64,000 nucleotides of DNA. Origin: Escherichia coli. Lineage in GTDB: Bacteria > Pseudomonadota > Gammaproteobacteria > Enterobacterales > Enterobacteriaceae. Shown piece after piece: positions 1 to 16,558 of this stretch. A program made the translations under genes and the position numbers. The notes under the pieces were generated by a model that saw only the letters and a list, made by a program, of their open reading frames with translations, did no database searches and was not told where the DNA came from. Within the stretch, counting starts at the first letter, position 1, and every line of letters begins with the position of its first letter. The stretch lies in NCBI RefSeq assembly GCF_003334405.1, contig NZ_QOWM01000003.1; one strand, given 5' to 3'.

Positions 1-258
1 ATGGAGCTGAAGGGGCTGATTTACAATGAAGTACATCTTCATGCACCTCATGCAGAACAACTGGAAGGTTTTACATTACAGCAGAGTGCGGAGTTGTGTT
101 ATCCGATGCGTCTTCGCGGTGATGAAGCCGTCGCATTATTGCAGATGACGCCGTTTGCCTGGCGTGCGAAGCCAGAAGTCTGGCAAACACTGGCAGCAAA
201 AGAAGTGTTCGACTGCCAGACGGACTTTAATATTCACCTCTGGCAGCGTTCTTATTAA
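1..258 (+). CDS. rlmA: 23S rRNA m1G745 methyltransferase RlmA, 3' fragment (N-terminus lies before window start)
   Basis: ORF track 85 aa running off the 5' edge, ending HLWQRSY; stop overlaps the convergent mntP stop; identity from sequence memory and synteny. Confidence 0.8.
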
Positions 259-12376: not shown

Positions 12377-12797
12377 ATTCTTATCCTTAAAATTAACCAT
12401 GTTATCGATAAGGCTATATATGACCTTAATTTGCATCTAATATCAAAGGGATTATAACGATATGGCACGAGTTAACCTGTTGACATTCAGGTGTTTTAAA
12501 GGTAGCAGCTCATGGTGTGTTATCCAGTAAGATGGAGAAATTTAACGGTCAGTCCGCACGCTATAACCAGATTGTTCAGCTAAGAAAGAAAACCAGAGTT
12601 GCTAATCAAAGGGCGAACACAACGGCATGTTTATGTTTATTTATATAGTTAGTTTTATAGATAAAATTGAAATTATAAATATAAATAATGAATTAGCAGA
12701 AGCATCAACAGTAATATCTTATTCTCTGGTCGATTTATGTAAAACCGACCAGTATTATCGATAAATTATCGTCTGACTTATTTTGCTTCGATAAAGC

Positions 12798-13142
12798 TTA
12801 CACCGCAGCCACAATCTTAATTTCAACTTTATACTTCGGGTTCATCAAACCCGCTTGTACCGTGCAGCGCACCGGCGCATGACCCGCGACAACCCAGGCA
12901 TCCCACGCTTTATTCATCGCCGCGAAGTCGTTTTTATCGGCCAGGAAAATGGTGGCATCCAGAATGCTCGATTTATTGCTGCCCTGTTTTTCCAGCACGG
13001 CGTCAATCTGTGCCAGCGTGTTGGCGGTTTGCTCAAAGGCATCGGCGTCGAGGTTTTCCGGTACACCAGTGTAGTAGAGCGTGTTGTTGTGGATTACTAC
13101 ATCAGACCAGCGGGCTTCAGCATCGATACGAACGATAGTCAT
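12798..13142 (-). CDS. yoaB: RidA/YjgF-family protein YoaB (114 aa)
   Basis: ORF track 130 aa; start at MTIVRIDAEARW; two adjacent ATG codons so start is uncertain by one codon. Confidence 0.85.
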   Translation of the reverse strand: MTIVRIDAEARWSDVVIHNNTLYYTGVPENLDADAFEQTANTLAQIDAVLEKQGSNKSSILDATIFLADKNDFAAMNKAWDAWVVAGHAPVRCTVQAGLMNPKYKVEIKIVAAV

Positions 13143-13247
13143 CATTTTGTCCTCATTATACTTCCATTTTCGTGCTGCAAAGACTGCCACAATGTGAGGT
13201 CGCCGTCACCACTTCAACTGGCGAAAGCGCCCTCATCCTGACATAAT

Positions 13248-13267
13248 CCCTGTTCAAATCAACAGGG
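13248..13267 (+). promoter_or_regulatory. LexA (SOS) box candidate overlapping the yoaA ribosome binding site
   Basis: CCCTGTTCAAATCAACAGGG: CTGT-N8-ACAG core inside a 20 bp palindrome, 7 nt upstream of the yoaA GTG start. Confidence 0.5.
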
Positions 13268-13273
13268 GGTAGT

Positions 13274-15184
13274 GTGACGGACGATTTTGCACCAGACGGT
13301 CAGCTGGCGAAAGCGATACCAGGCTTTAAGCCGCGAGAACCACAGCGACAGATGGCGGTAGCCGTCACCCAGGCGATAGAAAAAGGCCAGCCGCTGGTGG
13401 TGGAAGCAGGAACCGGTACGGGCAAAACCTACGCTTACCTGGCTCCTGCGCTGCGGGCGAAAAAGAAAGTCATTATCTCGACCGGCTCAAAAGCGTTGCA
13501 GGATCAGCTCTACAGCCGCGATTTGCCAACAGTCTCAAAGGCATTGAAATATACGGGCAACGTGGCGCTGCTGAAAGGGCGCTCAAACTACCTCTGCCTC
13601 GAACGTCTCGAACAGCAGGCGCTGGCGGGGGGCGATCTGCCGGTACAAATCTTAAGCGATGTGATCCTGCTGCGCTCCTGGTCTAATCAAACAGTCGATG
13701 GTGATATCAGCACCTGCGTCAGCGTGGCGGAAGATTCACAGGCGTGGCCGCTGGTCACCAGCACCAACGACAACTGTCTTGGCAGCGACTGCCCGATGTA
13801 TAAAGATTGCTTTGTGGTCAAAGCACGTAAAAAAGCGATGGACGCCGATGTGGTGGTGGTAAACCATCATCTCTTTCTGGCGGATATGGTGGTTAAAGAG
13901 AGTGGATTTGGCGAACTGATCCCGGAAGCGGACGTCATGATCTTCGACGAAGCCCACCAGCTACCGGACATTGCCAGCCAGTATTTTGGTCAGTCACTCT
14001 CCAGTCGACAACTGCTCGACCTGGCAAAAGACATCACCATCGCCTACCGCACCGAATTAAAAGACACCCAGCAGTTACAAAAGTGCGCTGATCGTCTTGC
14101 CCAGAGTGCGCAGGATTTTCGTCTGCAACTCGGTGAGCCAGGTTATCGCGGTAACCTGCGTGAGCTGTTAGCTAATCCGCAAATTCAGCGGGCATTTTTA
14201 CTGCTCGATGACACCCTGGAACTTTGTTATGACGTGGCGAAACTGTCACTGGGGCGTTCCGCCTTGCTGGATGCGGCATTTGAGCGCGCCACGTTGTATC
14301 GCACACGGCTGAAGCGGCTAAAAGAGATCAATCAGCCGGGCTACAGCTACTGGTACGAATGCACTTCGCGCCATTTTACTCTGGCTCTCACGCCGCTCAG
14401 CGTGGCGGATAAATTCAAAGAGTTAATGGCGCAAAAACCCGGTAGCTGGATCTTCACCTCAGCAACGCTGTCGGTGAACGACGATCTGCATCATTTCACC
14501 TCGCGGCTTGGCATCGAACAGGCCGAGTCGTTGCTGTTGCCCAGCCCATTTGATTACAGCCGCCAGGCGTTACTCTGTGTGCCGCGCAATCTGCCGCAAA
14601 CCAACCAGCCAGGTTCTGCTCGCCAGTTAGCGGCAATGCTGCGACCGATCATCGAAGCTAACAACGGTCGTTGTTTTATGCTTTGTACCTCGCACGCCAT
14701 GATGCGCGATCTGGCCGAGCAGTTCCGCGCTACCATGACGCTTCCTGTATTGTTGCAGGGGGAAACCAGCAAAGGGCAACTGTTGCAGCAATTTGTCAGC
14801 GCCGGTAATGCGCTTCTTGTGGCAACCAGCAGTTTCTGGGAAGGGGTGGACGTGCGTGGCGATACATTGTCATTGGTAATTATCGACAAATTGCCGTTTA
14901 CCTCGCCGGATGATCCACTGTTAAAAGCGCGCATGGAAGATTGTCGTTTGCGCGGTGGCGACCCGTTCGATGAAGTGCAACTACCAGATGCCGTCATTAC
15001 TCTCAAACAGGGGGTAGGGCGACTGATTCGCGACGCCGACGATCGTGGCGTGCTGGTGATTTGTGACAATCGGCTGGTGATGCGTCCTTACGGCGCGACG
15101 TTTCTCGCCAGTCTGCCGCCCGCGCCACGCACCCGTGACATTGCCCGTGCGGTTCGTTTCCTTGCGATACCATCCTCCAGGTAA
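13274..15184 (+). CDS. yoaA: DinG-family ATP-dependent helicase YoaA
   Basis: ORF track 636 aa with GTG start; Walker A GTGTGKT, DEAH box (FDEAHQL), four-Cys Fe-S cluster motif (CLGSDCPMYKDC). Confidence 0.93.
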   Translation: MTDDFAPDGQLAKAIPGFKPREPQRQMAVAVTQAIEKGQPLVVEAGTGTGKTYAYLAPALRAKKKVIISTGSKALQDQLYSRDLPTVSKALKYTGNVALLKGRSNYLCLERLEQQALAGGDLPVQILSDVILLRSWSNQTVDGDISTCVSVAEDSQAWPLVTSTNDNCLGSDCPMYKDCFVVKARKKAMDADVVVVNHHLFLADMVVKESGFGELIPEADVMIFDEAHQLPDIASQYFGQSLSSRQLLDLAKDITIAYRTELKDTQQLQKCADRLAQSAQDFRLQLGEPGYRGNLRELLANPQIQRAFLLLDDTLELCYDVAKLSLGRSALLDAAFERATLYRTRLKRLKEINQPGYSYWYECTSRHFTLALTPLSVADKFKELMAQKPGSWIFTSATLSVNDDLHHFTSRLGIEQAESLLLPSPFDYSRQALLCVPRNLPQTNQPGSARQLAAMLRPIIEANNGRCFMLCTSHAMMRDLAEQFRATMTLPVLLQGETSKGQLLQQFVSAGNALLVATSSFWEGVDVRGDTLSLVIIDKLPFTSPDDPLLKARMEDCRLRGGDPFDEVQLPDAVITLKQGVGRLIRDADDRGVLVICDNRLVMRPYGATFLASLPPAPRTRDIARAVRFLAIPSSR

Positions 15185-15241: not shown

Positions 15242-15937
15242 ATGCGAATTCTGGCTATCGATACCGCGACAGAGGCCTGCTCTGTCGCCCTGTGGAACGA
15301 CGGTACTGTCAACGCTCATTTTGAGCTTTGCCCTCGTGAACATACTCAACGAATCTTACCGATGGTGCAGGATATCCTGACCACCAGCGGAACTTCCCTG
15401 ACTGATATTAACGCTCTGGCTTACGGGCGCGGCCCCGGTAGCTTTACTGGCGTGCGCATTGGTATTGGCATCGCGCAAGGGCTGGCGCTTGGCGCGGAAT
15501 TACCGATGATTGGCGTCTCCACGCTAATGACGATGGCGCAAGGGGCGTGGCGCAAAAACGGCGCAACCCGCGTGCTGGCAGCCATTGACGCGCGAATGGG
15601 CGAAGTTTACTGGGCCGAATATCAGCGTGATGAAAACGGTATCTGGCACGGTGAAGAAACCGAAGCCGTACTCAAACCCGAAATCGTCCATGAACGAATG
15701 CAACAGCTTTCCGGCGAATGGGTGACGGTAGGGACGGGCTGGCAAGCTTGGCCGGATCTCGGTAAAGAGAGCGGGCTGGTTTTGCGCGATGGCGAAGTGT
15801 TACTGCCTGCTGCTGAAGATATGCTGCCGATTGCGTGTCAGATGTTTGCTGAGGGTAAAACGGTGGCGGTGGAACATGCCGAACCGGTTTATTTACGTAA
15901 CAACGTCGCATGGAAGAAACTTCCGGGCAAAGAATGA
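15242..15937 (+). CDS. tsaB: tRNA t6A37 biosynthesis protein TsaB (YeaZ)
   Basis: ORF track 231 aa starting [17 protein letters not shown]. Confidence 0.95.
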
Positions 15938-15976: not shown

Positions 15977-16558
15977 ATGGCGGTTCAAAAGAATGTTATC
16001 AAAGGCATACTGGCAGGTACGTTTGCGCTAATGCTGAGCGGTTGTGTCACTGTGCCGGACGCCATTAAAGGCAGCAGTCCCACGCCGCAACAAGATTTAG
16101 TTCGGGTGATGAGTGCGCCGCAGCTGTACGTTGGTCAGGAGGCACGCTTTGGTGGCAAAGTGGTTGCGGTACAAAACCAGCAAGGGAAAACTCGCCTGGA
16201 AATTGCTACCGTACCGCTGGACAGCGGAGCCAGACCGACGCTGGGAGAACTTTCTCGCGGTCGCATTTATGCCGATGTGAACGGTTTTCTGGACCCGGTG
16301 GATTTCCGTGGACAACTGGTTACGGTAGTCGGGCCAATCACTGGTGCGGTTGACGGCAAAATCGGCAATACGCCCTATAAATTTATGGTGATGCAAGTAA
16401 CGGGTTACAAACGTTGGCATTTAACCCAGCAGGTGATTATGCCGCCTCAGCCGATTGATCCATGGTTTTATGGCGGTCGTGGCTGGCCCTATGGCTACGG
16501 CGGATGGGGCTGGTATAATCCCGGCCCCGCGAGAGTACAAACAGTTGTAACTGAATAA
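15977..16558 (+). CDS. yeaY: Slp-family outer membrane lipoprotein YeaY
   Basis: ORF track 193 aa; signal peptide with lipobox LSGC. Confidence 0.9.

Follow-up and report, generated by a model that had tools for sequence, protein, structure and literature searches.

A probable LexA operator over the transcription start of yoaA in Escherichia coli

A LexA box at yoaA is already known in Escherichia coli; it was predicted in about 2000-2001, it was subjected to mutagenesis in 2021, and a 2025 review already presents yoaA as a LexA-regulated gene. The box described by Sutera et al. (J Bacteriol 203:e00228-21, 2021; PMC8378479), CTG-TTCAAATCAA-CAG, 24 nt upstream of the ORF, is the identical object to the one discussed here. 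In that study the 132-bp intergenic region was fused to luxCDABE and the fusion was found to be AZT-inducible. Most of the AZT induction of yoaA::lux was blocked by lexA3, however, a part of it, seen in late-log, persisted in lexA3 (PMC8378479). Changing CTG(N10)CAG, where N10 is TTCAAATCAA, to CCC(N10)GGG resulted in constitutive high expression of yoaA::lux (PMC8378479). When the mutagenic primer is compared with the wild type, the published box mutant is seen to carry 8 substitutions between -6 and +14; these alter the discriminator and the initial transcribed sequence, so promoter strength could rise independently of LexA. Expression studies have given modest values. By RNA-seq yoaA was 4.0-fold up with AZT and its lexA dependence was only 1.6-fold (PMC11228462), and in a ciprofloxacin time course yoaA showed an early and modest rise, with a log2 value of up to 0.68, or about 1.6-fold (PMC11002266). 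The original prediction, made from the letters of the DNA, had described yoaA as DNA-damage inducible, and the lexA3 effect, the constitutive box mutant and the 4.0-fold AZT induction bear this out (PMC8378479, PMC11228462). Together with the clamp-loader subunit chi (HolC), YoaA helps to remove blocked 3' ends where replication forks have stalled, and YoaA in excess is toxic (PMC8378479), so the repression of yoaA matters physiologically.

Several other LexA operators of E. coli offer points of comparison. The dinG operator, TATTGGCTGTTTATACAGTA (Lewis and Mount 1992), belongs to a paralogous DinG-family helicase gene and is, like that of yoaA, weak or asymmetric. Its left half-site is ATTGG, without the canonical CTG, whereas the yoaA box has both triplets but poorer flanks and a poorer spacer; the published heterology indices are 8.6 for dinG and 13 for yoaA (PMC11228462). 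LexA has been reported to bind the dinG operator directly (Lewis and Mount 1992, as cited in PMC8378479). No counterpart was found for yoaA, and a literature search for direct LexA binding assays at the yoaA box (EMSA, footprint or ChIP), which did not take in Courcelle 2001 or the LexA ChIP-chip study of Wade 2005, returned none. The operators of sulA and umuDC are near-consensus, with indices of 5.4 and 2.1 and 20- to 56-fold induction, as against 13 and about 4-fold for yoaA (PMC11228462). The polB operator, GACTGTATAAAACCACAGCC, falls in the same weak class as that of yoaA, with the same published index of 13 (PMC11228462) and similarly modest induction. However, relative to its start site at 65803 the polB box occupies -31 to -50, over the -35 region, while the yoaA box lies over +1. 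The recA box, at -11 to -30, is also placed unlike that of yoaA, which covers -6 to +14. The present analysis goes further in three ways: it places the yoaA box relative to a mapped transcription start and to the extended -10 element, it follows the footprint through 80 species, and it argues that the target is yoaA and not yoaB.

The window analysed here is a stretch of 64,000 nucleotides that corresponds to K-12 in reverse orientation. In a comparison of 50 kb, each of 49 sampled 60-mers agreed exactly with K-12 MG1655, with a single offset throughout, so that a window position equals 1906509 minus the NC_000913.3 coordinate. The 131-bp intergenic region between yoaA and yoaB is identical to that of K-12. 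The roughly 1-kb stretch around the palindrome was matched in 5425 of 5426 complete E. coli genomes, where the annotation reads yoaB / yoaA, and a 44-bp core is identical in 5270 of the 5426. At 13248-13267 (1893242-1893261 in K-12 coordinates) the sequence reads CCCTGTTCAAATCAACAGGG, a 20-mer for which no strand is assigned. A repeat finder run on CCCTGTTCAAATCAACAGGG returned perfect inverted arms, CCCTGTT and AACAGGG, of 7 nt each around a 6-nt centre. The core CTG-N10-CAG occupies 13250-13265 as CTGTTCAAATCAACAG, with both triplets intact and 10 bp apart, and this is also the single occurrence of CTGT-N8-ACAG in the window. The spacer TTCAAATCAA is A/T at 8 of 10 positions and is thus AT-rich, as the spacer of a LexA box should be. 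The original prediction had placed a CTGT-N8-ACAG motif within a 20-bp palindrome at exactly these positions. It had also put the palindrome 7 nt before the GTG start codon of yoaA at 13274, which is right as an offset from last base to first base but not as a gap, since 6 nt intervene; from the CAG to the start codon there are 8 nt. The downstream gene is indeed the DinG-family helicase that had been named. The yoaA reading frame (13274-15184, + strand, b1808) starts with GTG and encodes a DinG/XPD-family DNA repair helicase of 636 aa, and RefSeq annotation and the NCBIfam equivalog NF053712.1 'DNA repair helicase YoaA' (922.5 bits against a cut-off of 680, residues 3-630) agree on its identity.

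The motif by itself does not single this site out. Chance alone would supply 0.77 copies of CTGT-N8-ACAG per window, and at least one copy was present in 56 of 100 dinucleotide shuffles. A Lewis-type heterology index was calculated with a matrix of 17 published K-12 LexA operators (recA, lexA x2, uvrA/ssb, uvrB, umuDC, recN x3, dinB, polB, uvrD, dinG, sulA, dinI, yebG and ruvAB), each verified by an exact match in its K-12 promoter region. The index measures departure from the consensus TACTG(TA)5CAGTA. The yoaA box has an index of 13.12, marginally below the usual cut-off of about 15, and polB has a leave-one-out index of 12.5 with the same 17 operators. Index scoring had been proposed together with the original prediction, and the value obtained agrees with the 13 published for yoaA (from Courcelle et al. 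2001, by way of the table in PMC11228462). A LexA-type box is thus present as predicted, with the invariant CTG and CAG, an AT-rich spacer and an index of 13.1. By index the box comes no higher than 7th-9th when every 20-mer of the window is ranked, and equal or better sites numbered 4.25 on average in 64-kb sequences simulated with a first-order Markov model. The window has 32 sites in which CTG-N10-CAG is intact; of these the yoaA box has the lowest index, and it is the sole intergenic site among the six of the top 8 that were placeable on the K-12 annotation. By motif alone, therefore, the yoaA box is statistically unremarkable and belongs to the weakest class of accepted operators. Since the match is no better than chance, the significance of the box comes from its position, its conservation and the published experiments. 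The other low-index 20-mers of the window (59-78, 12510-12529, 12631-12650, 36210-36229 and others) were rejected, as each either misses one invariant triplet or is intragenic. Two of them, TCATGG...CCAGTA at 12510-12529 and TTATGT...ATAGTT at 12631-12650, are AT-rich and lie in the yoaB-yoaC intergenic region with an index of 11.2 (asymmetric matrix); each is minus one invariant triplet, and neither is a likely LexA site. Another CTG-N10-CAG with both triplets intact, CACTGGCGTTTTTTCCAGGG, has a T-rich spacer and an index of 14.6 and stands at 21912-21931; it lies within the yeaV coding sequence and is probably there by chance.

The position of the box relative to the promoter is more informative. 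Directly abutting the operator is an extended -10 element, TGaCATAAT (13239-13247, + strand), with the TG at 13239-13240 and the hexamer CATAAT at 13242-13247. A weak -35-like hexamer, TGGCGA, lies 17 bp upstream of the -10 hexamer at 13219-13224 (+ strand). Its role may be assumed from its setting in a conserved island; among 73 distinct sequences the cTGGc core at 13218-13222 has high column conservation, with variable sequence on both sides. A promoter and terminator scan of 12900-13500 with a 9-of-12 consensus rule found nothing, because TGGCGA has only 3 of 6 matches to TTGACA. On the basis of the extended -10 element in the sequence, a start near 13254-13257 was predicted, and long reads of 5'-capped transcripts bear this out. 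SMRT-Cappable-seq data (Supplementary Data 2 of PMC6131387) list an operon b1808|b1807|b1806 with a start at 1893255 on the reverse strand of NC_000913.3. This converts to 13254 (+ strand) in the window for the yoaA-tsaB-yeaY transcript, with an uncertainty of about 1 nt because forward-strand values in the PMC6131387 table are 1 lower than in other sources. The start is a pyrimidine, lies inside the box and follows CATAAT by 7 nt, which places this hexamer at -12 to -7. The yoaA promoter is of the sigma-70 extended -10 type, as the placement of the TGn and the hexamer relative to the start fits this class. A start at 13254 gives a leader of 20 nt and places the operator at -6 to +14. The suggestion in the original prediction that the box sits at or very near the start of transcription or translation is borne out for transcription, since the mapped start falls within it.

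The Cappable-seq supplement (PMC4782308) has no entry for the yoaA locus, the motif-discovery paper PMC3542263 makes no mention of yoaA or yoaB, and the data files of Kim 2012 that were examined contain no K. pneumoniae start site for yoaA. For undamaged E. coli, Kim 2012 (PMC3415461) gives only a weak distal start for yoaA and no proximal one; we take this as consistent with repression of the proximal start in undamaged cells and not as counter-evidence. The distal start assigned to yoaA lies at 12765 (+ strand; NC_000913.2 1891768, - strand), 509 nt upstream, and has 12 reads (PMC3415461). It is just past the 3' end of yoaB, and a transcript from it would be antisense to yoaB over the whole length of the gene. 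The distal promoter has a -10 hexamer TATTAT and contains an inverted repeat, CTGGTCG...CGACCAG.

Of the promoters compared, that of dinG comes closest to yoaA in its layout. In both promoters a -10-like hexamer stands directly before the box (CACAAT in dinG, CATAAT in yoaA), and in both the start falls at position 7-8 of the 20-mer and is followed by a short leader. The mapped start of dinG is at 833042/3 (the dinG promoter being K-12 833031-833055, or 732-756 of our locus L091), so the register is nearly that of yoaA. The two regulatory regions could share this register through common descent, or it could be due to convergence. The starts of sulA and umuDC also lie inside their LexA boxes in the PMC6131387 data, with the box over +1 as in yoaA, which makes promoter occlusion the mode of repression at these classical operators. 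As the starts of dinG, umuDC and sulA are all within their boxes, the yoaA layout is a standard one.

The conservation of the region was followed in Enterobacteriaceae by taking one genome per species, which gave 80 yoaA loci; the genera sampled include Escherichia, Citrobacter, Salmonella, Enterobacter, Klebsiella/Raoultella, Kosakonia, Kluyvera, Atlantibacter and Siccibacter. The 80 aligned sequences are the window and 79 loci with enough upstream sequence, and the 73 distinct sequences among them were used for column conservation. The extended -10 element is unchanged in all 80 loci. In every sequence TGACATAAT is followed by CTG-N10-CAG, with a gap of 2 nt in 78 and of 3 nt in the other two. 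The spacer N10 exists in 21 versions, each with 6-9 A/T among its 10 positions. The information content is 2.0 bits at the columns of CTG, CAG and TGACATAAT; it falls to 0.97 in N10 and to 0.78 in the spacer upstream. Several clades have a mismatch at the fourth position of the stem, as in CTGT...CCAG, and within the palindrome only CTG and CAG are invariant. The indices of the orthologous boxes range from 6.5 to 14.1, with the E. coli version among the weaker.

The distance to the start codon behaves differently. Read from the aligned sequences, the gap between CAG and the start codon is 8 nt in E. coli and 12-13 nt in the Enterobacter clade, with a maximum of 15 nt. The box keeps its spacing to the -10 element, whereas its spacing to the start codon varies; its place is thus set by the -10 element rather than by the ribosome binding site. 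The original prediction had described the box as sitting on the yoaA ribosome binding site, and its right arm does overlap the Shine-Dalgarno sequence AGGGGG (13264-13269, + strand). The G-run of this sequence is kept in most orthologues, however, in the Enterobacter clade a GAGAGAG downstream of the box takes its place, so that the Shine-Dalgarno sequence there is outside the box. The overlap is incidental, lacks conservation and follows from the shortness of the leader. LexA recognizes duplex DNA. For this reason, and because the -10 register is fixed and the start-codon distance variable in the 80 species, the stretch shared with the ribosome binding site is not what matters. Part of the value of the analysis lies in setting the record straight: the motif alone is insufficient for the call, and the key overlap is with the transcription start.

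We propose that the palindrome serves the yoaA promoter as its LexA operator and acts by promoter occlusion, a reading to which we give a probability of roughly 0.93. The anatomy of the sequence, its conservation, the mapped start, the LexA-dependent induction and the constitutive box mutant are observations, and from these we infer LexA binding and the steric exclusion of RNA polymerase. A LexA dimer on -6 to +14 would occupy DNA that RNA polymerase must both melt and enter, and initiation would be blocked. No open complex could then form at this promoter, for which the extended -10 element is essential. DNA damage would lead to RecA-stimulated self-cleavage of LexA and free the site, and the free site would give an mRNA with a 20-nt leader for yoaA that continues into tsaB and yeaY. 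As the operator is weak (index of about 13, the polB class), repression would be leaky and induction modest, in line with about 4-fold for AZT and about 1.6-fold for ciprofloxacin. Against the proposal stand the weak and unremarkable sequence of the site, the 8 substitutions of the published mutant, a lexA dependence of only 1.6-fold, the induction left in lexA3, and a mapped start that is a pyrimidine and uncertain by about 1 nt.

The box lies within the 131-bp region shared by yoaA and the divergent yoaB, and it has been read as an operator of the latter. A review table drawn from Fernandez de Henestrosa 2000 and Courcelle 2001 (PMC6590174) has yoaB, not yoaA, under 'potential SOS box', and PMC11002266 likewise assigns the box to yoaB. 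The gene belongs to the RidA/RutC family; its coding sequence is 12798-13142 and its transcription starts at 13173, so that the unit spans 12798-13173 on the - strand. The start has been reported at NC_000913.2 1891360(+) with a 31-nt leader (PMC3415461) and at 1893335 in the SMRT-Cappable-seq data (PMC6131387). The box is 75-94 bp upstream of this start and outside the core promoter, and the start already had 448 reads in undamaged cells (PMC3415461). With ciprofloxacin yoaB was not induced, its log2 value going from 0.03 down to -1.01, whereas yoaA rose early (PMC11002266). The fixed register of the box with the yoaA -10 element across 80 species also argues against yoaB as the target. The older assignment to yoaB is probably wrong, and it is very unlikely that the box is the LexA operator of yoaB or of both genes.

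The palindrome might also work mainly as an RNA hairpin that masks the Shine-Dalgarno sequence and controls translation, rather than as a protein-binding DNA site. If it were transcribed whole it would form an 8-bp stem that includes part of AGGGGG, and the weak distal start at 12765 (12 reads, PMC3415461) would yield such a transcript. However, transcription from the main start at 13254 begins within the palindrome and leaves the left arm out of the mRNA, and the leader that remains is unstructured (-4.1 kcal/mol, z +1.9). Even the fold of the full palindrome is no better than those of shuffled sequences (z -1.1, with 31 of 200 shuffles as good). Conservation does not follow the stem either, since the fourth pair is mismatched in several clades and nothing in the palindrome beyond CTG and CAG is invariant, and the published effects came from a transcriptional lux fusion (PMC8378479). 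A search of 12700-13500 against Rfam gave only a meaningless sub-threshold snoRNA match. A hairpin could matter only for rare read-through from the distal start at 12765, and as the main function of the palindrome we regard it as highly improbable. That the palindrome is a chance one with no regulatory role is scarcely credible. The frequencies expected by chance, 0.77 motifs per window and about 4 sites per 64 kb at the index of the yoaA box, do allow for it, but all 80 species keep CTG-N10-CAG although the spacer differs among them in 21 ways, mutation of the box makes expression constitutive and most of the induction is blocked by lexA3 (PMC8378479). The published mutagenesis already refutes chance, unless the mutant phenotype were wholly an artefact of altered promoter strength.

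With the palindrome read as the LexA operator of yoaA, the late-log AZT induction that persists in lexA3 (PMC8378479) calls for a comment. A weak operator that directly abuts an invariant extended -10 element makes displacement of uncleaved LexA conceivable. A mechanism that responds to starvation could displace it from the yoaA operator, either through a change in the competitiveness of RNA polymerase or through a second factor that recognizes the palindrome. We consider this unlikely; if it were true, one SOS gene could be switched on by a route that bypasses RecA.

The transcript that starts within the operator extends beyond yoaA. Downstream on the + strand are tsaB (b1807, 15242-15937) and yeaY (b1806, 15977-16558), both identified from their reading frames, the K-12 annotation and full-length reads. 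TsaB is an essential subunit of tRNA t6A synthesis. Full-length reads from the start at 1893255 cover b1808|b1807|b1806, and the two downstream genes also have start sites of their own, at 1891294 for tsaB and 1890560 for yeaY (PMC6131387). Because tsaB and yeaY are co-transcribed from a LexA-controlled start, part of their expression may be SOS-responsive.

Some further features were observed on the yoaB side of the intergenic region. No convincing -10/-35 pair was found for the yoaB start at 13173. A perfect TATAAT is present at about 13155-13160 on the - strand, downstream of the yoaB start and about 13 nt before the ATG. In 'Escherichia coli strain SCPM-O-B-8794' (our locus L005, about 1440-1475) the -10 element and the box are unchanged, however, the sequence further upstream is AACCGTGGCATAAAGCCTACGACC and not TCAACTGGCGAAAGCGCCCTCATC, unlike other Escherichia loci. 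This suggests that the yoaB side of the intergenic region may have been replaced or rearranged in that strain. In E. coli O2:H16 strain BA92 (NZ_CP176406.1, 2188300-2190076, corresponding to about 12700-13700 of the window) the region was matched as two pieces, and an IS1A transposase lies between two 'RidA family protein' fragments, which is an IS1 insertion in yoaB adjoining the yoaA promoter.
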